Below are positions 43,027 to 52,279 of a stretch of DNA of 64,000 nucleotides, piece after piece. The number at the start of each line of letters is the position of its first letter. Positions within the stretch are counted from its first letter, which is position 1. The notes beneath the pieces are model-generated. The model ran no database searches, was not told where the DNA came from, and worked only from the letters and a program-made list of their open reading frames with translations. The stretch is from assembly GCA_964460075.1 (NCBI GenBank), contig CAYWPC010000010.1, positions 3,102 to 67,101 on the forward strand. Reading direction: 5' to 3'. Source of the DNA: an uncultured Acidimicrobiaceae bacterium (GTDB lineage: Bacteria; Actinomycetota; Acidimicrobiia; Spongiisociales; UBA5794). The position numbers and the translations under genes are program-made.

Positions 43027-46000
43027 TCAGGTCACGACGGACTTGCCGGCCTCGCAATGGTGGAGGAAGTCGCAGAACCGACATGCGGGTGACGGCGAGG
43101 GGTCGAACGGCCCGGACGTCGCTGCCGCAACAAGGTCTGTGATGTTTGACTGTGCAGCTTGGAGCCAGTCATCGCTGACGACTCTCGTCACTTCCTCACA
43201 CGTCCCGTCACCGAAATAAGCGAACGTGACCTCGACGTTCTGCGGGATGGTGCCGGCTACGGTGCCGTTTGCGACTGCGAGAGCGTACGCCTCAAGCTGA
43301 ACGTTCTTCGCCGCGTCGTCACGCCGTTTGCCTGACTTGTAATCGACAATCTCCCATGTGCCGTCGTCACCGTCGTAGATGGCGTCGATCTTGCCCCTAA
43401 TGGTTCCTGGTTCGAGTCCGAGGACGAACGGTATTTCCACGAAGCGGGCCTGCATGCGGTGGAAGCGAGACCGAGCAAAGGCCTCCCAAGGGTCGCTTCG
43501 TGTCGGGCGCACAGTGGTGGCACCTTTGATGTGTACGGTGTCGAAGGCTCCGGTAGACGGATCGTCGAGGGCCACCACGCCGAGGTTGTGGAGCTCGACT
43601 TGTCGATGGAATCGGGTGCCGAGCGCAGCGGAGACCTGTGGGCGTCTGGGCAATCGGTCGTGCTGGATCCACTTGAACTTGAGGGGACACTCTGCGAGTG
43701 CGACCAGGTTCGTCACCGAAGTCGAGAACACGGTTCTGGTCGCTTCAGCCTTTGGAAGTTGGAGGTTGCCGATCTCCATGATGAGCTGTTCTGTTCGGTT
43801 GTGCACAGTGTCGACCATATCCGGGAAGTGATCCGTGATCCAGTGTGGATCACGGATTCGCTCACGCAGGGCACTCGTCCAGCCTCCTGGAAACAAAGGA
43901 TCAGGAGGGTCTGCAGGCTCCTCATGGGATCTCGGTGCCGGTTTGGGCCCGGCATCGTCCGTCCAGACGAGTGCGGTCGCCCCCGGCGTGTCGTTGGCTA
44001 TCTCAAGGAGCGGTGAAGGCGTACGAGGCCTCGTCACATCTCGGTCCCAAGCGTGGCCCGTCATGATGAGGTCGTGTTTTGCTCTTGTCACCGCGACATA
44101 CGCCAACCGCCACTCTGCAACGTTGTGGCGGGCACTGAGAATCTCTCTGCACTCTTGTGGCGACGCCGCACCTTGCACCGCTGCAAACGACGACCTGTCG
44201 AGACGGAGTTCGTACGGCAAGACAAGGGCCGATCTGCCCGGGTCGTCATAGGTTCGCACACCCGCTGGGAACGTGCCCTTGGCTAGGGACGGCAGGAACA
44301 CGATCGGCCACTCGAGGCCCTTCGCGGCATGAGCCGTGATCAGATGAACGACGTTTGACGACGTGTCCGCGGCCGCATCCAGTTCCTCGCCGGGTGATGC
44401 ATCATCGAGAGCGTCGACGTAGCGCAGAAACGCAGTGAGTGTCGGGGTGCCGTCGAGTGGTCTCCAGCGGCGGGTGAGCGAGGCGAACCGGCCGATATTG
44501 GCCCGTGCCGTTGCTGCGTCCGATGGCGACTGGGCTGCAACCTCGTCCCAGAATCCGAGGTTGGTGATCGTCATCTCGAGGATGCGGGGAACAGGGAGCA
44601 TCTGCGAGCGGGTGTACATATCTATGTGCAGCACTCCGAAGCGTTCGAGCCTGGCTCTCCCTTCGCTCGAGAGGCCTTCGATGTCGTCGAGATGCTCGAG
44701 CGCCACAGCCAAGTTGCGCGTTTCGACGTGTCCACACCATCTCCTCAGTCTCGAGATGTCGCGCATGCCGACCCGGAACATGCCTCCCAGGAGTATCCGT
44801 AGGAGTGACGGCTCGTCCGCTGGGTTTGCGAGGATTCGTAGCCAGGCGAGGAGATCTGCAACCTCAGGAACCGTGAGCAGGCCACCCATGGAACTGACGG
44901 CGTAGGGAATGTCTGCGTTTCTGAGGGCGTCCGCGATGGCGGGGATCGCTGATCTCTTGCGGCACAGGATCGCAACGTCGCACCATGACGAGCCGGATTC
45001 GCGACGGCGGTGTATCTGGTCGGCAATCCATTCGGCCTCATCATCATCTGTGGCGAACCACCCGACGCTGAGGCTTCCGTCTGCGGCGCCCTCACACGGA
45101 GTCAAAGGTTTGGAGGCTTCGATACGGGGGAGGTGACCCTGGATCTTGTTCGCCAACGCAAGGATGACCGTGTCAGAACGCCGGTTGATGCTCAGGGGGA
45201 GCGTCTCGGTCGGTAGACCATCTCTTCGAGGGAAGTGCACAGGGAAGTTGGCGAAGTTGTCAAGCGATGCGCCCCGCCAGTCGTAGATCGTCTGATCGGC
45301 ATCTCCGACGGCGGTCACAGGCTTGCCATCCCCGAATACGGAGGTGAGCAGCCGGCGCTGAGCCGGATCGGTGTCCTGGTATTCGTCGAGGAGAACCGTG
45401 TCGTATCGATCCGAGATCCCTGAGGCGACGTCTGGGAAGCCCTCGACGATCTCCACAGCGAGCCTGATGAGGTCGCCGTACTCGAGAAAGTGCAGGTCAC
45501 GTTTCGCCGAGGCGTAGCGGTCGGCAGCATGTGTCAGGGAGATGCGTGCCTTCCACACGTCATCCAAGGTAGCGGGTGCTGCATCTAGCACATCTTGCGC
45601 GGTGAGCAGGTTCGCGGTCATCGAGTCGGCAACGGTGAGTAACTCCTCCCTCCGTCTTGACAGGGATGAGAGATCGAGGTCCGTCGAGTCGAGATCTCGA
45701 AGGACTCGGTATGCAAGTTCCGATCGGTGACCTTGGTCCATCAGGGCCGATGCGGGCTCGTAACCAACGAAGGCTCCGAACTCGTCGAGGATCGACGACG
45801 CGAAACCGTGATACGTCGTCACCTCGACTTCTCTGTCATCGTCCCTATCACCGATAGCTTCCCGTAGCCGGGTCCGTAACTCGTCTGCGGCCTTGTTGGT
45901 GAAGGTGATCCCCAGAGCTCTCGTAGGGTCTCCCCCGCTATGTACCACTGCAGCGAAGCGCTCAACGATCGTTGTGGTCTTTCCGGTGCCTGCGCCCGCG

Positions 46001-46071
46001 ACGACTCGCAGCGGCACGGGCGGGTAGTCGATGATTGCCTGTTGTTCTGCGGTAGGTACGAACTTGGTCAT
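43027..46071 (-). CDS. adnB: UvrD-like helicase-nuclease, AdnB subunit
   Basis: AGAGTGKT, DEYQD, VGDADQTIYDWRG, TAHAAKGLEWP and LAYVAVTRAK motifs; C-terminal nuclease GKIDA-IVDYKSG-QLEAYA with C...CRFCDFLHHC. Confidence 0.88.
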   Translation of the reverse strand: MTKFVPTAEQQAIIDYPPVPLRVVAGAGTGKTTTIVERFAAVVHSGGDPTRALGITFTNKAADELRTRLREAIGDRDDDREVEVTTYHGFASSILDEFGAFVGYEPASALMDQGHRSELAYRVLRDLDSTDLDLSSLSRRREELLTVADSMTANLLTAQDVLDAAPATLDDVWKARISLTHAADRYASAKRDLHFLEYGDLIRLAVEIVEGFPDVASGISDRYDTVLLDEYQDTDPAQRRLLTSVFGDGKPVTAVGDADQTIYDWRGASLDNFANFPVHFPRRDGLPTETLPLSINRRSDTVILALANKIQGHLPRIEASKPLTPCEGAADGSLSVGWFATDDDEAEWIADQIHRRRESGSSWCDVAILCRKRSAIPAIADALRNADIPYAVSSMGGLLTVPEVADLLAWLRILANPADEPSLLRILLGGMFRVGMRDISRLRRWCGHVETRNLAVALEHLDDIEGLSSEGRARLERFGVLHIDMYTRSQMLPVPRILEMTITNLGFWDEVAAQSPSDAATARANIGRFASLTRRWRPLDGTPTLTAFLRYVDALDDASPGEELDAAADTSSNVVHLITAHAAKGLEWPIVFLPSLAKGTFPAGVRTYDDPGRSALVLPYELRLDRSSFAAVQGAASPQECREILSARHNVAEWRLAYVAVTRAKHDLIMTGHAWDRDVTRPRTPSPLLEIANDTPGATALVWTDDAGPKPAPRSHEEPADPPDPLFPGGWTSALRERIRDPHWITDHFPDMVDTVHNRTEQLIMEIGNLQLPKAEATRTVFSTSVTNLVALAECPLKFKWIQHDRLPRRPQVSAALGTRFHRQVELHNLGVVALDDPSTGAFDTVHIKGATTVRPTRSDPWEAFARSRFHRMQARFVEIPFVLGLEPGTIRGKIDAIYDGDDGTWEIVDYKSGKRRDDAAKNVQLEAYALAVANGTVAGTIPQNVEVTFAYFGDGTCEEVTRVVSDDWLQAAQSNITDLVAAATSGPFDPSPSPACRFCDFLHHCEAGKSVVT

Positions 46072-49055
46072 TGGGCGAAGGCCTCTCTTCCTTGAGGCTG
46101 GGCCGGGCAGACGAGGGCGACATCGCATCGGTCGCAATGTTTGCCGACGACCGGATCGAACCGCTCAGCGGCGATGGCCTTGGTGATGGCCTCGAGTTCC
46201 GCGGTCACTCCATCGAGTTGCGAGGGCTCAAGTGACCGGGTGACGATGCTGGTCTTGTTCGGGTCGATTCGCGGATACCAGAACTCGGCTCCGACGATCG
46301 ATCCCTTGGAGACAAGGGACGCATCATCTCTGGCGGCCAGAACGTAGTAGCCGAGCTGGAGTGACACCGCGGCGTCCGCAACTCTCACCGCTGATCCCGA
46401 CGTCTTGTAGTCGACGACGAAGAGCTCCTCGCCTCTTTGCTCGATACGGTCGGCCCGGCCCGTCCAGGGAACTCCTGCAACCGTATACGGCAGCTCTCTC
46501 TCGAAGGCCACGGGAACCCCAGAGGTTGGCCAGCGCTCGTAGAGGTTGTCCAGCGTAGTTTCGGCCCTCTCCCTCCACGATCTTCCCACAGCGTCGTCGT
46601 CGAAGCCCGCATCAGCCCACAGATCGTCGAGACACGCCTGGGCCTCTCTCCGTGTGGAACGCTGTCTGTCGTCCTCGACGGCTTGACGCTCGGCAACCTC
46701 GATGACCTTGTGGATGAGCGTGCCGAACTTCATGTGGTCACTGGTTTCGCTCCGCGAAAGCAGGTGCCTGCCTATGGCGTACTGCCGTGGGCAGGTGGCA
46801 TACGCTGTCGCCTGGCTCGGTGATAGCCGAAGCTGGTCAGGGACGATGTGGCGATGCGGACCTGATTCGAGTGCACCGTACCGGGTCATCGGATCCGATA
46901 AGCCGACGTGCGTGCCTCCAGCGAGCACGTCGATCGCCGCTAGCCGTTGGATGGCTGGTGCCTCAGGATCCTTGGCGGTCAGACGAAGCGCGGCTTCGAA
47001 CGAGCGAGGAGTCAGCGGCTCTGTGTTTCGATGTGGTGGTGTGATGGATGCCACGAGGGGAAGGAATCGGCTGGGCTGAGGTCCGTTTGGGACGGCGTCG
47101 TTGCTGGTCGCGGTCCATACGACGCGAGACGTTGCTCTGGTCATAGCGGTGTAGGCAAGCCGGCGTTCCTCGTCGAGCCGGAATGCAACGTAGTCGCTGG
47201 TCCTCGCGGGAAGGTGCGGGTTGAGGAGCCGCACGCCGAGGAGCGAGTCGCGCGATCGAAGATCCGGCAGGTCGCCCTCGACGGCGTTCGCGATGTAGAC
47301 GACATCGAAATCGGTGCCCTTGGCTCTGTGCAGTGTTGCGATCGTGACGCCGCCATCGTCAGCGGATCGGAAGGAGAACAGCGGATCCGCTTCGAAATCG
47401 GTTCCTGCCACGAGTGTTCCGTGGTCGGTAAGGGTCGCCCCAGGCGATCGTTCGACGAGCCGCGTGAGTACCTGGTCGAATGCAGCCCACGCACGCCGAT
47501 CGGCCAGGTGATCCGCGTCGAGCGCTACGGGAACGAGTTGCGGGAGCGTGGACCACACATGCCAGAGCCCGACGGGAGCCGGCACATCGCAGGCCCACGA
47601 AGCGTCATCGATGAGCGTCGCGAGGCGTTGGCCCTGAGGAACCCTCGATGCGATGAGTGCGGACCACGTAGCTCCATCTGCGGCCAAGCGGGCGAGGTGA
47701 TTAACGGTTCCATACGGCACGGCGAAGAACGGGCTCAGGAGAACTCGTTCGATCGCGAGGCCGGCACCTTCGTCCGTTCCGGTGGCGAGCACGAGGTCGT
47801 GGACGAGGCGGACGACGGGCTCGTCTGTAAGCCTGCTCTCTGTGAAGGAGTGGGGGAGAGAGCGACGCTCGAGCGCCGTTGCCAGCTCGCTGCCAAAGTC
47901 AGACTTCGTTCTTGTGAAAACGGCGACGCGCTCGAGCGGCACACCGTCGAGGAGGTGGACACGCTCGATGTCGGATGCGATCCAGTCGGCTTCGTCGTGG
48001 ATCGTCGTAAACGTGTGGGCGGCAACGCTTCCACCCGTCCGTGTGCTGTGCACCCTCCCCGCTCCTCCTGGCAGTTCACGCGCTGTGACACGGACGGCCG
48101 CATCGAGAATCTCGGAAGGAACCCGGAAGGATGTGGTGAGCACGATGCGCTCGGCCTCGGTTCCGAGGCGTTCCTCTGTGTCTTGGGGGAACGTGAACAC
48201 GTTGTTGATGTTCGTGCCGCGGAATGAATATATCGACTGATAGGGGTCCGCTGCGACCGTGAGGCTCGATCCCGGTGCGGCGAGCCGGAAGAGCATCTCT
48301 GCGTGAGCGTGAGACGAGTCCTGGTACTCATCAGCCACGATGAGGTCGTAAGGATCTGCGATCTCGGGTATCGCGCCGAGCGCGGCGACGGCCTCGGTGA
48401 GAATCCTTCCGTAGTCGGTTCGGTGTTGTGCAGTGAGGTATGCGTTGTACCGGTCGAAGAATCCGGCCATCGCGATGAGCCTCGGGTCGCTCATCGTCGT
48501 GAGATCTTCTGGGGTGATGAGCTGCTCGTGGCATCGCAGGATGAAGTCGGTGACCTCACTGGCCATCATGGGCGAGTCGAGGAGCGTTCGGTGGCCCGGG
48601 GGCCATGCAGACGGTGTCTCGGATGCGAGGAGGTCTGCCACGACCTTCTCTTGCTCCGCTGCGGTGAGCACGCTCGGCGTCCTCTCCCAGCCGAGGCTTG
48701 CAGCGTTCGCTTCGACGATGCGCATCGCGAGACTGTGATATGTGGCGACGTGGATGCGTTGTGCGAAGGGACCGATCATGTCGACGAGGCGTCGTCGAAG
48801 ATCGTTTACACCTGATCGCGAGAAGCCGAGAGCGAGGATCGCCTCTGGTGCGATGTGAGCATCGGCGATGGCAGCGTTCACGCGTGCAACGAGGAAGTGT
48901 GTCTTGCCCGTTCCCGGACCGCCAACAACGATCTGTGGCCGATCTGGTGGTGCGACAGAGCCACTCCAGTCTTGCGGTCCGAGTCTCGTCTCGATCAGCG
49001 GCATCGCACGAGCCTCTACGGTGACGGGGTCGAGTGGCGGGTCATCATCCGGCAT
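46068..49055 (-). CDS. adnA: UvrD-like helicase-nuclease, AdnA subunit
   Basis: GGPGTGKT, ADEYQD, TLHRAKG and EERRLAYTAMTRA motifs; C-terminal GRADRI-VVDYKTSG-QLGYY with C...CDRCDVALVC. Confidence 0.85.
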   Translation of the reverse strand: MPDDDPPLDPVTVEARAMPLIETRLGPQDWSGSVAPPDRPQIVVGGPGTGKTHFLVARVNAAIADAHIAPEAILALGFSRSGVNDLRRRLVDMIGPFAQRIHVATYHSLAMRIVEANAASLGWERTPSVLTAAEQEKVVADLLASETPSAWPPGHRTLLDSPMMASEVTDFILRCHEQLITPEDLTTMSDPRLIAMAGFFDRYNAYLTAQHRTDYGRILTEAVAALGAIPEIADPYDLIVADEYQDSSHAHAEMLFRLAAPGSSLTVAADPYQSIYSFRGTNINNVFTFPQDTEERLGTEAERIVLTTSFRVPSEILDAAVRVTARELPGGAGRVHSTRTGGSVAAHTFTTIHDEADWIASDIERVHLLDGVPLERVAVFTRTKSDFGSELATALERRSLPHSFTESRLTDEPVVRLVHDLVLATGTDEGAGLAIERVLLSPFFAVPYGTVNHLARLAADGATWSALIASRVPQGQRLATLIDDASWACDVPAPVGLWHVWSTLPQLVPVALDADHLADRRAWAAFDQVLTRLVERSPGATLTDHGTLVAGTDFEADPLFSFRSADDGGVTIATLHRAKGTDFDVVYIANAVEGDLPDLRSRDSLLGVRLLNPHLPARTSDYVAFRLDEERRLAYTAMTRATSRVVWTATSNDAVPNGPQPSRFLPLVASITPPHRNTEPLTPRSFEAALRLTAKDPEAPAIQRLAAIDVLAGGTHVGLSDPMTRYGALESGPHRHIVPDQLRLSPSQATAYATCPRQYAIGRHLLSRSETSDHMKFGTLIHKVIEVAERQAVEDDRQRSTRREAQACLDDLWADAGFDDDAVGRSWRERAETTLDNLYERWPTSGVPVAFERELPYTVAGVPWTGRADRIEQRGEELFVVDYKTSGSAVRVADAAVSLQLGYYVLAARDDASLVSKGSIVGAEFWYPRIDPNKTSIVTRSLEPSQLDGVTAELEAITKAIAAERFDPVVGKHCDRCDVALVCPAQPQGREAFAQ

Positions 49056-49875
49056 CGGCGGTCTGCCATGCAGGACACAGCGTTGCCTTGAAGTCGCACC
49101 AGTCGCACAACGCAGACGTGGTAGGTGGCCACGTATCGGTCTCAATCGCATGCTCGATTGCCGTCCACAGCGCCTCGAGTTGACGTTCCATGGCATCGAG
49201 CTGTGCGTCGGTGATATCCATGGTGTACTCGGTTGGCCCGTTGAGATACAGGAGTCGAACGCGGTCGGGCGTGACGCCCTTGGTGATTCGGATCAGCAAC
49301 GCGTAGATTTTCAGGGCGAAGAAGGCCTTGTGTGCGAATCGTTGCGGCGGGGCTCTCCCCGTCTTGTAGTCGGTGATCACCAGCACTTCTCGCACGGAGC
49401 CGTCGGTATCGACCTCGGTGATGTGCTCCATTCGGTCGAGGATTCCCCTGATCGTCATGTCGTTCACCGGAACCGTGAGGTCCATCTCGAGCTCGAGCGG
49501 TTCGAATGACGACGGATCCTCCACCGTGAAGTATGAGGCGAGAAGCTCAAGAGACTCAATTCCCCATTGGCGTTCGTCGTCGAGAGACGTGAACAGATCC
49601 GGGTATTCATCAGTTTTGAGCTCGGTCCATGCGGATCGAAAGAGGTCGTAGAGCTGCTCGGGTGTTCGCTGCGCAGCGGGGAGTTGGAACAGACGTTCGA
49701 GGGCGAGATGTGCCGTTGTGCCTCGAGCCTGGTGTACGGTCGGCTCGGTTGGGATCTTGTCGATGGATTTGAACTTGTACAGCTGAGGGCACGTCTTGAA
49801 ATCGCTGGCCCTGCTCGGAGACAGACTCGTCAGCGTGTGCCCTGTCGTGGGGGTGTCGGTGGGTTCGGTAGCCAT
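49045..49875 (-). CDS. RecB-family/Cas4-like exonuclease (Rv2119-like)
   Basis: LSPSRASDFKTCP, RGTTAHLALE, RGILDRM, TDYKTG and CDWCDFKATLC motifs; overlaps the adnA start. Confidence 0.88.
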   Translation of the reverse strand: MATEPTDTPTTGHTLTSLSPSRASDFKTCPQLYKFKSIDKIPTEPTVHQARGTTAHLALERLFQLPAAQRTPEQLYDLFRSAWTELKTDEYPDLFTSLDDERQWGIESLELLASYFTVEDPSSFEPLELEMDLTVPVNDMTIRGILDRMEHITEVDTDGSVREVLVITDYKTGRAPPQRFAHKAFFALKIYALLIRITKGVTPDRVRLLYLNGPTEYTMDITDAQLDAMERQLEALWTAIEHAIETDTWPPTTSALCDWCDFKATLCPAWQTADAG

Positions 49876-49881
49876 GCTCGC

Positions 49882-49903
49882 AGCGTACTTGCCTGCTGTG
49901 ACA
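49882..49903 (-). promoter_or_regulatory. PafBC/RecA-NDp-type DNA-damage promoter (TGTCAC-N10-TACGCT), leaderless
   Basis: Minus strand reads TGTCAC agcaggcaag TACGCT gcgagc ATG, matching the spacing of the TGTCRG-N10-TANNNT consensus (5/6 in the upstream element). Confidence 0.65.
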
Positions 49904-49977
49904 GAAATGGGTTCAGCGAGTCGTCTCGTGGGCGTGTTGCTCGAAGGGATGCAGACCGCACGAGTGAGGCTGCTGTT

Positions 49978-50051
49978 CGCGAAAAACGTGTGTGGGTCGC
50001 GAAAAGCACATGACGTTGTGAGCTACACAGGTGACGGCAGTTCCGTAGTTT
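49978..50051 (+). promoter_or_regulatory. Candidate ncRNA-A promoter: tandem CGCGAAAA boxes plus -10 TAGTTT
   Basis: Boxes at 49978-49985 and 49998-50005; -10 at 50046-50051, the same offset as in unit B. Confidence 0.6.
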
Positions 50052-50058
50052 CCCAAAT

Positions 50059-50470
50059 ATCCAGAGACGTAAGTCGATGGAGTGGCACAGGGCAAGCTCC
50101 TCACCCGAGCAGGCCTAACCGGGCGACCGGGTGCCTTTGCAGCGAAGGGCGACCGGAGCTGCAGCCTGCCGCTTCGGCGGTAGGCACAAGGTCTCGAGCA
50201 GGAGCCCAGCCTTCGAGAGGCCACCGGAGGTCCGCCGTGAGGTTGGGTCTCCACCCGGAGGCGACCTCGGTCGCCGCCGTAGCGTTTCTGCGAACCTCGG
50301 TTCGTATGAGCGGTTCCGTCCAGTGATGGAGACCTCGGTCCTCGTCGAGGACGGAGCACCCCGGGAGGAGTCGGGAGACTGGCGAGACCCGGATTGGAGT
50401 GACTGTGTCACTTCGCTTGAGAACCCCGAGAGGGCGAGGCCTCGGCCGAGCTTCCTCGGGGTTTCTCTTA
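50059..50470 (+). ncRNA. Putative novel structured ncRNA A (about 410 nt)
   Basis: Dense hairpins with UUCG, GNRA and four c(CUCG)g loops; a GAA/GGA-GNRA module; terminal hairpin homologous to ncRNA B; no credible CDS; convergent with the downstream gene. Confidence 0.65.
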
Positions 50471-50476
50471 TGTTGG
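50419..50476 (+). terminator. Intrinsic terminator-like hairpin ending ncRNA A
   Basis: GAGAACCCCGAG...CTCGGGGTTTCTC followed by TTATGTT. Confidence 0.7.
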
Positions 50477-50532
50477 CGGTGCTTGCCTCAGCGCTCCTCT
50501 GCTCCCCAATCTTGTCCACTTCCGGCGCGGCG

Positions 50533-51165
50533 TCAGCACGTCGGCTCGATTGCGATGAAGTCGACGACCCCCGAGTCACCCGGCGCGTCGAGTTTGCCGA
50601 CCATGTGGGGATCAGAGGAGCCGTCGACGACGAACGTCGCGGAGGCGATGTCGTAGGCATCCGTGACGCTGACCCGAGCGCCGTAGGAGTCGACGAGGTC
50701 ACGCCTTGTAGATCCGAGGCCTACGCCTTCTCGAGTGCGAAGGTTGGAATTCCTGAGGTCCACGGAGTTGGCGGTCACCGGATCGAAACCGTAGGACCAG
50801 CTCGCAAGGCGCTCACCGTCGACGTCCGCAATGAAGACGAGAGCGAGGGAGCCCCAAGACACGACACGGGCAGCACCGCTTGGGCATTCGGGGGCAGCAA
50901 CGGTGCTTGCGTCCTCACGTGAGTCGGCGTCCCACCCGCCGATTGCTGCAGCTATGCCAGCGATCACGGTCTCGGCATCGTCGCCGATGGCGAACGGCCC
51001 GATAGCGTCGCTTGTCAGCGTCAGATCGGTGGAAGGGGTCGGTCCGGAGGGGAGACTCGTCGTTGTCGACGGCTCGGCTGTGACGACCGGTTGTGAGATC
51101 GAACAGGCGCCTGCGAGCAGTGCAAGAGCCGTTGCGAGACGAAAAATAGGCGGAATCGAACGCAT
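50533..51165 (-). CDS. Hypothetical lipoprotein
   Basis: Lipobox LAGAC, Thr/Pro linker, one Cys pair; leaderless TACCGT-N6-ATG promoter. Confidence 0.75.
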   Translation of the reverse strand: MRSIPPIFRLATALALLAGACSISQPVVTAEPSTTTSLPSGPTPSTDLTLTSDAIGPFAIGDDAETVIAGIAAAIGGWDADSREDASTVAAPECPSGAARVVSWGSLALVFIADVDGERLASWSYGFDPVTANSVDLRNSNLRTREGVGLGSTRRDLVDSYGARVSVTDAYDIASATFVVDGSSDPHMVGKLDAPGDSGVVDFIAIEPTC

Positions 51166-51186
51166 TTCGCAACGGTAGTCGGGAGA

Positions 51187-51260
51187 CGCGAAAACTCGTC
51201 GTGGCTCGCGAAAAGCAATCAGCGTTCCAGGTTGCGAAGCCTCTCTGCATGTGCCAAATT
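51187..51260 (+). promoter_or_regulatory. Candidate ncRNA-B promoter: tandem CGCGAAAA boxes, -35 TTGCGA, N17, extended -10 TGn-CAAATT
   Basis: Boxes at 51187-51194 and 51207-51214; TTGCGA at 51232-51237; CAAATT at 51255-51260. Confidence 0.62.
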
Positions 51261-51267
51261 AATGCTT

Positions 51268-51580
51268 ACCGCAAAGGGGCAACCCGGAGCGGACCGCAAT
51301 CGGGGAGACCCGGGAGCGGGTGCCGAAGGGAAACCGGAGGCATCCGGTGTAAAAACCGGTGACCGGTCTGGAAACGGGCCGGGTCCTTGAGAGGGCACCC
51401 TCGGGTGTTCGGGGCGTCCGCCCCAGTCCTCGGCTTCGGTCGACGACAATCACAAGGAGGGTGCGAGTCTCGATTCGCATCTGGCTCCGCTTGCGGAGCA
51501 GCGAAACCGAAGGCCGCAAGGTCGGAGGCGACGTAGAGAACACCCCAAGGGGGCTTCGGCTTCCTTGGGGTTTCTCGTTG
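51268..51580 (+). ncRNA. Putative novel structured ncRNA B (about 310 nt)
   Basis: About 13 consecutive hairpins, mostly capped by GNRA/UUCG/CUUG/CUCG loops; four RAW/GGA-GNRA modules; terminal hairpin; the downstream gene has its own leaderless promoter. Confidence 0.75.
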
Positions 51581-51585
51581 TTGGC
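51536..51585 (+). terminator. Intrinsic terminator-like hairpin ending ncRNA B
   Basis: GAGAACACCCCAAGG-GGGC-TTCG-GCTT-CCTTGGGGTTTCTC followed by GTTGTT. Confidence 0.72.
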
Positions 51586-51661
51586 TCACCAACGACGAGG
51601 CGTCGTCGAGTCCACAGATGCCGGACGTCCACCGAGGTTCAAGGTGAACTATGCTGGCTGC

Positions 51662-52279
51662 ATGTCCTGGCCAGATGACGCCCTCAGCGATGACGAAACG
51701 ATCATCACCTCGTTTAGGCCTCATTGGAAGTTGCTGTTCATCCCGTTCGTGTGGTTCGTCGCGATCGTCGTGGTGTTCTCCTTTGCACTTGCGTTGCTCA
51801 CGGACCTGTGGATCGTCTGGTTGGGCATCCTTGTCGCTGCAGACGCATACTTCGTCATTCGGCCTGTCGTCAACTGGTGGTTCACTCGCTACGTGCTCAC
51901 GACGGAGCGGTTGATCACCCGAGTCGGCCTCATCGCACAGTCGGGTGTCGAGATCCCGCTCGAACGGATCACGAACGTCAACTTCTCGCAATCTGTGTTT
52001 GAGCGGTTACTCGGAGCTGGTGATCTACTGATCGAATCTGCCGGAACATCCGGGCAGAGCAAGTTTTCGAACATCCCTCACCCCGATGACTTCCAGACCC
52101 TCTTGTACAAGGTGCGCGAGAAGCGGACCATCGAGCTGAGCGGCATGCAAGACGCGCTCGACACACCCAAGGCAGACGCCGTCGACTCCATTCGCAGGCT
52201 CGCAGAGCTCCTTGAGGAAGGTCTCGTCTCACCAGAGGAGTACGAGATGAAGCGCAAAGAACTGCTCGACGAGATGTAG
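51662..52279 (+). CDS. Membrane protein with bacterial PH (bPH_2) and SHOCT domains
   Basis: RPHW, two TM segments, YVLTTERLITRVG-IPLERITNV, ERLLGAGDLLIESAG, and SHOCT LAELLEEGLVSPEEYEMKRKELL. TATGCT-N6-ATG leaderless start. Confidence 0.88.
   Translation: MSWPDDALSDDETIITSFRPHWKLLFIPFVWFVAIVVVFSFALALLTDLWIVWLGILVAADAYFVIRPVVNWWFTRYVLTTERLITRVGLIAQSGVEIPLERITNVNFSQSVFERLLGAGDLLIESAGTSGQSKFSNIPHPDDFQTLLYKVREKRTIELSGMQDALDTPKADAVDSIRRLAELLEEGLVSPEEYEMKRKELLDEM

Follow-up and report, generated by a model that had tools for sequence, protein, structure and literature searches.

Comparative sequence analysis indicates that five copies of a structured RNA module in the 64-kb window (the whole stretch of 64,000 nucleotides analysed here) lie in two tandem, paralogous and independently transcribed small RNA (sRNA) genes, which we call RNA A and RNA B (Table 1). 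As judged from these comparisons, the two genes belong to an undescribed, putative sRNA family that is specific to Acidimicrobiia, a class of abundant and mostly uncultured Actinomycetota found in oceans, soils, sponges and hydrothermal sites; our literature searches returned no sRNA biology described for this class. The bodies of both RNAs are predicted to be arrays of 9-11 short hairpins, a structure that covariation supports. We tentatively propose that they act in trans as decoys or scaffolds.

The first-pass annotation listed five copies of a module in which an outer stem, a 3x3 internal loop with GGA as its 3' strand, a short inner stem and a GNRA tetraloop follow one another, and all five sequences were confirmed exactly, each on the + strand. 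A strict descriptor (outer stem of at least 2 bp, RAW, inner stem of 2-5 bp, GNRA, GGA, outer stem) matched these five copies and no more on either strand of the window, while 0.14 matches are expected by chance in the whole window and 0.002 in the two RNA regions (dinucleotide shuffles). The notion that GC-rich DNA might carry the motif at a similar density is not borne out, with 0.20 matches per 100 kb in 1.48 Mb of unrelated bacterial loci and 0.29 where GC content is at least 0.58, against 134 per 100 kb in 116 unique RNAs of the family and 0 on their antisense strands. This amounts to an enrichment of about 500-fold in family RNAs over control DNA.

The five copies do not represent five independent origins, since M1 and M2 form a tandem duplication (26-nt period, 81% match) and, in the alignment of the two paralogous RNAs, the A module corresponds in position to M3. 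RNA A and RNA B fold far more stably than shuffled sequences do (z = -6.5 and -6.7). Minimum free energy (MFE) folds of the RNAs contain all five modules, and ensemble pair probabilities are high for the A module (0.98), M2 (0.97) and M3 (0.99), lower for M1 (0.71) and merely ~0.07 for M5 in the full-length RNA. Despite this low ensemble probability, compensatory changes in orthologues maintain the pairing of the M5 inner helix (97.5% paired, 3 compensatory pairs); the local M5 fold has a second 3x3 loop (AAA/CGA) beneath the module. Two further, relaxed copies are found in RNA A. One is its 5'-terminal hairpin (pair probability 0.97; GNRA in 11/11 orthologues), which in many orthologues reads CUC-GAA-GGGY-GNRA-RCCC-GGA-GAG. 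The other, at 50360-50392, combines a 4x4 purine loop (AGGA/GAGA) containing tandem G·A with a GNRA cap (GAGA), and among the module-like elements of RNA A it shows the strongest conservation, with near-invariant alignment columns 322-353, a compensatory change at columns 326/349, a pair probability of 0.8 and GNRA in 11/11 orthologues.

Independent transcription of RNA A and RNA B is argued from the fact that each has its own conserved box, promoter and terminator. A simple sigma-70 consensus scan found no promoter, and the promoters were deduced from conserved alignment columns. For RNA B both hexamers coincide with such columns and transcription probably starts at ~51267; for RNA A the aligned -35 element is degenerate in the window (CTACAC versus TTGCNN in orthologues), and spacing places the likely start at ~50058. 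The double CGCGAAAA box of RNA A, which sits between RNA A and the divergent nuclease gene, is invariant in 14/14 RNA A orthologues, and a double box precedes nearly all family RNAs. Each gene has a near-invariant terminator hairpin. Compensatory changes were seen in 44 of the 89 consensus pairs of RNA A and in 30 of the 80 of RNA B. Searches of the 64-kb window with the nhmmer profile, the box and the terminator gave no third family copy, and a tRNA/tmRNA scan detected neither kind of RNA.

Table 1. Features of the RNA A/RNA B locus, in coordinates of the window; promoters and transcript ends are predicted.
Feature	Position	Strand	Sequence or remark
Stand-alone PD-(D/E)XK nuclease gene	49045..49875	-	Pfam PF12705; divergent from RNA A
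Double box upstream of RNA A	49978..50005	+	CGCGAAAA-N12-CGCGAAAA; exact matches
RNA A putative -10 hexamer	50046..50051	+	TAGTTT; columns T72 A73 T76 T77 invariant
RNA A, ~415-nt structured sRNA	~50058..50472	+	Array of about 11 hairpins; MFE z-score -6.5
RNA A 5'-terminal hairpin	50061..50080	+	CCA-GA-GAC-GUAA-GUC-GA-UGG; relaxed module, tandem G·A loop, GNRA
Module copy 1 (A module), RNA A	50139..50162	+	GCAGC-GAA-GG-GCGA-CC-GGA-GCUGC
RNA A hairpin with AGCCCAG loop	50190..50222	+	Tandem G·A in stem, 7-nt loop; stems covary
RNA A hairpin	50360..50392	+	CCGGG-AGGA-GUCGG-GAGA-CUGGC-GAGA-CCCGG
RNA A terminator	50422..50469	+	AACCCCGAGAGGGC...GAGCUUCCUCGGGGUUU; stem sequence-invariant; two invariant G·U pairs
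Double box upstream of RNA B	51187..51214	+	CGCGAAAA-N12-CGCGAAAA; exact matches
RNA B putative promoter	51232..51260	+	-35 TTGCGA (51232-37), 17-nt spacer, -10 CAAATT (51255-60)
RNA B, ~315-nt structured sRNA, RNA A paralogue	~51267..51582	+	Array of about 11 hairpins; MFE z-score -6.7
Module copy 2 (M1), RNA B 5'-terminal hairpin	51269..51292	+	CCGC-AAA-GGG-GCAA-CCC-GGA-GCGG
Module copy 3 (M2), RNA B	51294..51319	+	CCGC-AAU-CGGG-GAGA-CCCG-GGA-GCGG
Module copy 4 (M3), RNA B	51321..51342	+	UGCC-GAA-GG-GAAA-CC-GGA-GGCA
Module copy 5 (M5), RNA B	51507..51528	+	CC-GAA-GGCC-GCAA-GGUC-GGA-GG
RNA B terminator	51540..51579	+	ACACCCCAAGGGGGCUUCGGCUUCCUUGGGGUUUCUCG; stem invariant across orthologues
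bPH_2 + SHOCT membrane protein gene	51662..52279	+	Pfam PF03703, PF09851; conserved synteny

Orthologues of RNA A and of RNA B were found by nhmmer at 13 syntenic loci each, and more than 100 Acidimicrobiia metagenome-assembled genomes (MAGs) carry orthologues of the pair in the same gene order. The terminator pattern matched 107 stretches, nearly all of which bear an Acidimicrobiia or Actinomycetota label; it had 0 matches in viral contigs, and a viral origin was rejected. Across the family the order runs from an AdnAB/PD-(D/E)XK nuclease through the RNAs to a bPH_2/SHOCT gene, which in the window follows the RNA B terminator at a distance of ~85 nt. The PD-(D/E)XK nuclease is the first gene of an AdnA/AdnB-like operon (43027-49196; Pfam UvrD-helicase, PDDEXK_1), and almost every family locus maintains the synteny with this operon. 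RNA A and RNA B are neighbours in every case and have a promoter type in common; in some genomes the distance between them is merely 40-170 nt, with no intervening gene. Family members range from ~125 to >450 nt and all have the promoter and terminator. The short ones (type C) contain no clear module and lie in the RecB-like to bPH_2 locus according to tblastn, which overturned a first impression that their context was variable (MFS transporter, GDH, HNH). Separate tandem duplications have added hairpin units in the lineage of the window (M1/M2) and at loci L148 and L013. The locus offers three handles, namely a dedicated promoter signature, a fixed address beside AdnAB end-resection genes and a hairpin-duplicating body.

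Orthologue alignments separate the two halves of the module. The first-pass annotation had read the differing yet paired stems as covariation, and the copies do behave as RNA-level hairpins: they are confined to one strand, include G·U pairs and have undergone compensatory changes in orthologues. In the module helices, 94% of alignment cells are paired and 10/27 pairs changed on both sides, a degree of covariation reached by 0/500 shuffles; in the outer stem of the A module, all four pairs (4/4) show compensatory change. The GNRA loop, also claimed to be kept, is present in 10/10 or 11/11 orthologues at module positions while its sequence drifts (GAAA, GCAA, GAGA, GCGA, GUAA). Tetraloop class is set by position, module hairpins always having GNRA and neighbouring hairpins always YNCG. 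The sequences thus support class-specific selection on the GNRA loop at module positions, and the persistence of class despite sequence drift argues for a role beyond stability.

The internal loop behaves differently from what had been claimed, as the supposedly invariant 3' GGA is invariant only in the window genome and its closest relatives. Among more distant orthologues, these positions can show a GA/GA loop, one A·G or A·A mismatch, or an uninterrupted Watson-Crick helix. The internal loop has given way to Watson-Crick pairs or a lone mismatch at three module positions, where the G·A loop itself cannot, therefore, be essential for recognition. The A module is one such position in distant orthologues, and the M3 loop can be GAA/GGA, GA/GA, one A·G mismatch or completely paired. 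All orthologues retain a 3x3 or 4x4 purine-rich loop at M2 and a G·A-type loop in the 5'-terminal hairpins of RNA A and RNA B; M1 itself is restricted to the subclade of the window. With the internal loop and the tetraloop anywhere from 2 to 4 bp apart, the module is not a single rigid unit of recognition. We suggest that the GAA/GGA loop represents the form taken in this lineage by a tandem or triple sheared G·A motif rather than a fixed code, and that it is probably a stable non-Watson-Crick segment of the helix. The orthologue series is in effect a natural experiment, in which G·A loops and Watson-Crick pairs interchange at fixed positions while the GNRA class stays constant.

The strand sequences agree with the sheared G·A interpretation. 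Three of the five copies (the A module, M3 and M5) have exactly the GAA/GGA strand pair with C-G closing pairs, C preceding GGA in each, and so have the Y-R pair expected 5' of GGA in a 3x3 loop of three consecutive sheared GA pairs; M1 (AAA/GGA) and M2 (AAU/GGA) are variants, and other copies or orthologues carry a 2x2 GA/GA core or purine-purine variants. We take this strand pair to be the published motif of 'three consecutive sheared GA pairs'. Tandem and triple sheared G·A loops of the 5'GGA3'/3'AAG5' kind were reportedly characterised by Chen et al. in 2005 and by Chen and Turner in 2006, and the 5'GGA/3'AAG loop is said by Chen and Turner to be unusually stable for a 3x3 loop.

Comparison with described RNAs yielded no identity. 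Rfam 15 gave 0 matches at the gathering threshold in the window and 12 other family loci, and at E <= 10 gave three weak matches in 49850-51680 (E 0.57 to 9.6), far below gathering scores; literature searches found no match to RNA A or RNA B. Like raiA, ROOL, GOLLD and OLE, which are large structured ncRNAs of bacteria, the two RNAs combine class-wide conservation with many tetraloop hairpins and stable synteny, but they match none of these Rfam models at E <= 10, show no pseudoknots or long-range helices and are plastic in hairpin number. The raiA motif is also present in Acidimicrobiia; identity with it was rejected for want of a covariance-model match. The RNA-polymerase-binding 6S and Ms1 RNAs of Actinomycetota are likewise ~300-400 nt, highly structured and encoded by stand-alone genes, but RNA A and RNA B have neither the rod with a central bubble nor an Rfam 6S match, and identity with Ms1 was rejected on synteny (HAD-IB hydrolase/oxidoreductase), which differs from that of this locus. 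A closer parallel in organisation is offered by the Csr/Rsm sponge sRNAs (CsrB, RsmX/Y/Z), which also form paralogues of varying length with a shared upstream activating sequence and terminator, and in which the number of repeated hairpins varies and is altered by duplication. The two groups are not homologous in sequence or structure, Rfam gave no match, and their apical loops differ (ANGGA in Csr/Rsm, GNRA or YNCG here). The range of lengths and the amplification of hairpins would nevertheless fit the pattern of sponge RNAs rather than that of compact, ribozyme-like folds.

Based on these findings, we lean, with less than even confidence, towards RNA A and RNA B being stable, trans-acting, multi-hairpin decoy or scaffold sRNAs whose GNRA/G·A hairpins serve as repeated docking units. 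Each gene would be transcribed from a sigma-70-type promoter with two phased CGCGAAAA boxes ahead of it, transcription beginning right at the 5'-terminal GNRA/G·A hairpin and stopping at the sequence-invariant terminator, and the body of the RNA would be a string of tetraloop hairpins arranged like beads. The GNRA hairpins, with grooves distorted by G·A pairs, would dock one partner, most likely a protein, with an avidity that scales with hairpin number. We infer the action in trans, the multivalent binding and the nature of the partner from this arrangement; the independent multiplication of hairpins in several lineages fits a multivalent role. Counting against this reading are the variable spacing, the replacement of the internal loop at three module positions, the want of a clear module in type C RNAs and the low ensemble probability of M5. 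To our knowledge the phylum Actinomycetota lacks Hfq, ProQ and CsrA, and if the hairpins do dock, the locus would encode a sponge or scaffold RNA system that points to a new RNA-binding partner.

A possible though doubtful alternative is that the G·A loops and tetraloops are stabilisers or near-neutral variants and that function lies elsewhere, for example in base-pairing by AGCCCAG or in recognition of the terminator. The interchange of loop and Watson-Crick pairs or single mismatches at three module positions speaks for this explanation, as does the stability attributed to the 5'GGA/3'AAG loop. The strongest sequence conservation indeed falls on the terminator stem and the AGCCCAG loop (identical in 11/11 RNA A orthologues), so the key functional site may lie outside the module. 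Stability alone, however, would not lead one to expect position-specific retention of GNRA versus YNCG or a G·A-type loop kept in the 5'-terminal hairpins of both RNAs in all orthologues, and a search for targets found no enrichment of the AGCCCAG complement in the 64-kb window.

We regard as rather unlikely an architecture made of RNA only, in which GNRA loops would find their receptors, helices or G·A loops, in the same RNA, across the RNA A/RNA B pair or in another copy, so that a folded or multimeric particle results, reminiscent of the recently described ornate bacterial RNAs. Five to six position-conserved GNRA loops per RNA are many for 300-400 nt, G·A loops are roughly equal to them in number, and the constant adjacency and common promoter type of the two genes would suit a joint particle. 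Covariation, however, reveals no long-range helices or pseudoknots, and hairpin number and inner-stem length differ among close relatives, which a fixed three-dimensional architecture tolerates poorly. Moreover, GNRA subtype switches freely at a given position, and no conserved 11-nt tetraloop receptor (CCUAAG...UAUGG) was found in the orthologue alignment, the CCUAAC of the window's RNA A being absent from its orthologues.

It is very unlikely that RNA B and its type D equivalents are a cis-acting leader or attenuator of the bPH_2/SHOCT gene, even though they always lie upstream of it, co-oriented and with 50-90 nt between them and its start. A riboswitch would join a conserved aptamer to a variable expression platform directly coupled to the gene that follows, whereas here it is the terminator that does not vary and the body that does. 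The promoter and terminator that frame RNA B also frame RNA A and type C RNAs, which precede other genes or another RNA, and a TAnnnT hexamer (TATGCT) 6 nt before the bPH_2 ATG suggests that this gene probably has its own promoter and is leaderless.

We give almost no credence to the modules being kink-turn-like sites for L7Ae-family proteins or GGA sites for a CsrA-type protein: tandem G·A is the core of the non-canonical stem of kink-turns (L7Ae/15.5K/YbxF sites) and GGA is the core motif of CsrA, and GGAG is mildly enriched in both RNAs (11 versus 7.0 and 7 versus 3.3 expected), but the loops are symmetric and GGA is neither apical nor conserved. The first-pass annotation had likened the loops to the non-canonical helix of a kink-turn lacking its 3-nt bulge. 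The GAA/GGA copies, the 5' hairpin of RNA A and many orthologues do have a 5'-GA/3'-AG core beside a regular helix, but the asymmetric loop with its 3-nt bulge is absent, orthologue loops being 2x2, 3x3, 4x4 or none, so that no kink is expected and the L7Ae reading was rejected. The CsrA reading was likewise rejected, as GGA faces purines from the 3' side of an internal loop and varies among orthologues, whereas Csr/Rsm RNAs present multiple GGA in apical loops or single-stranded linkers. We know of no CsrA partner in the class Acidimicrobiia and, more generally, of no CsrA or bacterial L7Ae homologues (YbxF/YlxQ) as a rule in Actinomycetota.

Returning to the favoured decoy reading, a more specific version of it, which we consider improbable, would make the twin RNAs the RNA arm of a hitherto unrecognised Acidimicrobiia replication/repair regulon marked by phased CGCGAAAA boxes; as multivalent decoys, they would draw off a nucleic-acid-binding factor belonging to that pathway. 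A scan of all genomes for the double box gave, among the matches listed, mostly chance matches in unrelated phyla and so cannot define a regulon. The same double box that separates the RNAs from the divergent AdnAB/PD-(D/E)XK operon also precedes dnaA in Ca. Actinomarina and, in another MAG (L140), nrdJ.

The five copies of the module, which consists of a stem, a RAW-GGA 3x3 internal loop, a short inner stem and a GNRA tetraloop, occupy two intergenic regions either side of a minus-strand ORF. Each region holds a conserved, strand-specific gene for a structured RNA (RNA A and RNA B), and each gene carries a promoter signature and a terminator of its own. Folding of both regions beats that of shuffled sequences (z = -6.5 and -6.7); in both, TTGC resembles a -35 element and TAnnTT or CAnnTT a -10 element, and both end in a GC-rich terminator hairpin with a U tract. 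With start sites placed from promoter spacing, the predicted 5' ends of both RNAs would lie 0-3 nt ahead of a GNRA hairpin with a G·A-type internal loop. No further family copies were found in the 64-kb window. The intervening ORF, which has no Pfam match, is restricted to some lineages; in four compared loci (L001, L012, L054, L105) only a gene-free gap of 40-170 nt separates the two RNA genes.

Features of the RNA A/RNA B locus (window positions)
Feature	Position	Strand	Remarks
AdnA/AdnB-like + PD-(D/E)XK apparent operon	43027-49875	-	two UvrD-helicase + PD-(D/E)XK proteins (1036 and 1042 aa), one stand-alone nuclease (276 aa); ORFs as listed overlap at 46068-46137 and 49045-49196
Double box, RNA A	49978-50005	+	CGCGAAAA at 49978 and 49998; exact, 20 bp apart
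RNA A	~50058-50472	+	inferred start, terminator
RNA A module	50139-50162	+	
RNA A 4x4 hairpin	50360-50392	+	
RNA A terminator stem	50422-50469	+	
Intervening ORF	50533-51165	-	210 aa, lipoprotein-like N-terminus
Double box, RNA B	51187-51214	+	CGCGAAAA at 51187 and 51207; exact, 20 bp apart
RNA B	~51267-51582	+	inferred start, terminator
RNA B M1	51269-51292	+	
RNA B M2	51294-51319	+	
RNA B M3	51321-51342	+	
RNA B M5	51507-51528	+	
RNA B terminator stem	51540-51579	+	
RNA B 3' tail	51572-51582	+	TTTCTCGCG
bPH_2/SHOCT start region	51647-51664		apparent start ATG 51662

All five module sequences reported by the first-pass annotation are present on the plus strand, at the positions given there. 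A descriptor of the module (outer stem of at least 2 bp, RAW, inner stem of 2-5 bp, GNRA, inner stem, GGA, outer stem; G·U allowed) matched exactly these five and no sixth site on either strand of the window, while dinucleotide-preserving shuffles averaged 0.14 matches (maximum 1) over the whole window and 0.002 across both RNA regions. Its density was 0.20 per 100 kb in unrelated bacterial loci (1.48 Mb, both strands) and 0.29 in those with a GC content of at least 0.58, versus 134 per 100 kb in the 116 unique RNAs of the family, whose antisense strands gave zero matches. The concern that random GC-rich DNA would be hit at similar density is thus not borne out. The copies had also been read as covariation within one genome. 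Pairing is indeed maintained, but part of the difference between stems is divergence after duplication: M1 and M2, found together only in the window's subclade, arose by tandem duplication (two copies with a 26-nt period and 81% match), and the RNA A module aligns with M3 between the paralogues. Therefore, about three origins, not five, are represented.

Using the neighbouring PD-(D/E)XK nuclease as a query we recovered 30 loci, of which 16 (L001-L016; 53-83% protein identity) come from MAGs labelled mostly Acidimicrobiia or Actinomycetes, with one Acidobacteria. Orthologues of RNA A and of RNA B were each detected by nhmmer in 13 of these, at the same position and orientation. At the equivalent locus, other Actinomycetes (L017-L030) have neither box nor RNA. 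RNAalifold consensus folds of 10 RNA B and 11 RNA A orthologues are arrays of short hairpins, with compensatory double changes at 30 of 80 and 44 of 89 pairs, respectively. In the RNA B module helices 94% of cells are paired and 10/27 pairs changed on both sides, values reached by 0/500 shuffles, and sliding the register lowers pairing to 30-50%; for RNA A, the figures are 80% and 8/12. Each hairpin position keeps its own tetraloop class: those of the module have GNRA in 10/10 or 11/11 orthologues, even as the letters drift (GAAA, GCAA, GAGA, GCGA, GUAA), and the remaining hairpins are YNCG in 9-11 of 10-11, which is beyond what stability alone would preserve. Ensemble pair probabilities are 0.98 for the RNA A module, 0.97 for the RNA A 5' hairpin, 0.8 for the 4x4 hairpin, and 0.71, 0.97 and 0.99 for M1, M2 and M3. 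M5, at only ~0.07 in full-length RNA B, is on these predictions the least secure copy; it is present in MFE and local folds, the latter with a second 3x3 loop (AAA/CGA) stacked beneath.

The proposed invariance of the 3' GGA is limited to the window genome and its near relatives. In the same alignment columns of the RNA A module, L001 and L002 share the GAA/GGA loop of the window, L004 has GAA/GAA, L012 and L008 show one A·G mismatch, and L006, L011 and L007 are fully Watson-Crick. M3 ranges from GAA/GGA through GAA/GAC, GA/GA and single A·G or A·A to full pairing, and the M5 position is a plain helix in 5/10 orthologues. A symmetric, purine-rich loop persists in all orthologues only at the 5'-terminal hairpins of RNA A and RNA B (AGA/GAA, AGAA/GGAA, GGAA/GGAA, GAA/GGA or GA/GA). 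Beneath GNRA or UNCG hairpins of the 116 RNAs, the commonest loops are GA/GA (52) and single purine mismatches, followed by GAA/GGA (14), AAA/GGA (8) and AGA/GAA (7). Together, these variants and counts point to a tandem sheared G·A core as the common denominator. The 5'GGA/3'AAG 3x3 loop reportedly forms three consecutive sheared GA pairs, and we take the GAA/GGA loop to be this known form. As 2-4 bp separate it from the tetraloop, the two do not form a rigid unit. The reading as kink-turn (L7Ae) or CsrA sites was rejected, the modules lacking the defining features.

Terminator stems of the RNA A and RNA B orthologues show no variation, two G·U pairs included, and are therefore conserved as sequence, not merely as structure. 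The stem (CCCCGAGAGGGC / GCUUYCUCGGGG) is invariant across >100 species and between paralogues. Intrinsic terminators are not usually so constant, which suggests that the stem is itself recognised. In a search of 185,579 species genomes, a terminator-only pattern (CCCCRAGRGGGC-N3-22-GCTTYCTYGGGGTT) matched 107 stretches; nearly all of them carry the label Acidimicrobiia, Acidimicrobiaceae or Actinomycetota. It matched zero viral contigs. Family RNAs in a few MFD bins labelled Acidobacteriota (L042, L055, L069, L074, L077, L107) are near-identical to those of L045, L078 and L099, whose labels are Acidimicrobiia or Actinomycetota; these conflicting labels probably reflect inconsistent records. 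Loci picked up by the terminator pattern alone almost always also hold PD-(D/E)XK/AdnB-like and/or bPH_2/SHOCT genes (tblastn), which argues for a class-wide conserved address: AdnA/AdnB-like and PD-(D/E)XK genes pointing leftward, next one or two RNAs and lastly bPH_2/SHOCT, these pointing rightward. Ca. Spongiisocius, at 53% protein identity, shares this address. Lengths are ~410 nt (form A), 260-400 nt (form B), ~125 nt (the short form C) and ~365 nt (form D), with longer forms in Ca. Spongiisocius and L148.

The double box (CGCGAAAA-N12-CGCGAAAA) precedes nearly every family RNA. It lies 180-610 nt upstream of nearly all terminator matches that no contig end truncates, and 182 of 200 boxes in these loci have a terminator downstream; most of the others are truncated copies or belong to additional RNAs whose terminator differs slightly. 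In the window it separates RNA A from the divergent AdnAB/PD-(D/E)XK operon. Five Ca. Actinomarina species (L160, L165, L184, L204, L214) also carry it ~200 nt ahead of dnaA; L193 has it close to dnaA, and L140 ~290 nt ahead of nrdJ. From these cases among the matches listed, replication and repair genes may share a regulator. At 50023-50028 of the window, the -35 position of RNA A is degenerate (CTACAC versus TTGCNN in orthologues), with boxes and -10 intact. The 3' tail of RNA B, also found in its orthologues, and its L148 counterpart TTTTTCGCG resemble the reverse complement of the box, so that box-like sequences in inverted orientation flank each RNA gene.

Rfam 15 gave no match for the window or 12 other family loci, and the literature searched held nothing on sRNAs of Acidimicrobiia. 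Ms1 and raiA were ruled out by synteny and by absent covariance-model matches. The loop motif is already known; there is a solid case that its host RNAs are a new ncRNA family with no described match, restricted to one class; they offer a clear experimental path, with no mechanistic surprise yet. Hairpin number is plastic within the array. Tandem amplification took place independently in L148 (3776-3935; 56-nt unit x 2.9) and L013 (178-352; 43-nt unit x 4.1), both inside family RNAs, and L005 and L001 carry further insertions.

We infer that the RNAs would be stable and trans-acting, their GNRA/G·A hairpins serving as repeated docking units. We favour a protein partner, for which they would act as decoy or scaffold much as Csr/Rsm RNAs do, because copy number varies, units amplify independently, and paralogues of very unequal length share one promoter/terminator frame. 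Such features are the usual pattern in sponge RNAs but not in compact RNA folds; the organisation is alike, whereas the hairpin type differs. To our knowledge, the usual sRNA chaperones are not known in the host phylum. An RNA-only tertiary or quaternary assembly is a live alternative, with the same length and copy-number plasticity weighing against a compact fold. Also live is a reading in which other conserved elements, such as the AGCCCAG loop or the invariant terminator, carry the function and the G·A loops are near-neutral; the loop variation accords with this, and the position-fixed GNRA class sits less easily with it. A cis leader for the adjacent bPH_2 gene is less likely: RNA B is its upstream neighbour, but a TAnnnT hexamer (TATGCT) 6 nt upstream of its apparent start suggests that this gene has a promoter of its own and a leaderless mRNA. 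Another ATG, at 51651, is in a different frame from this gene.
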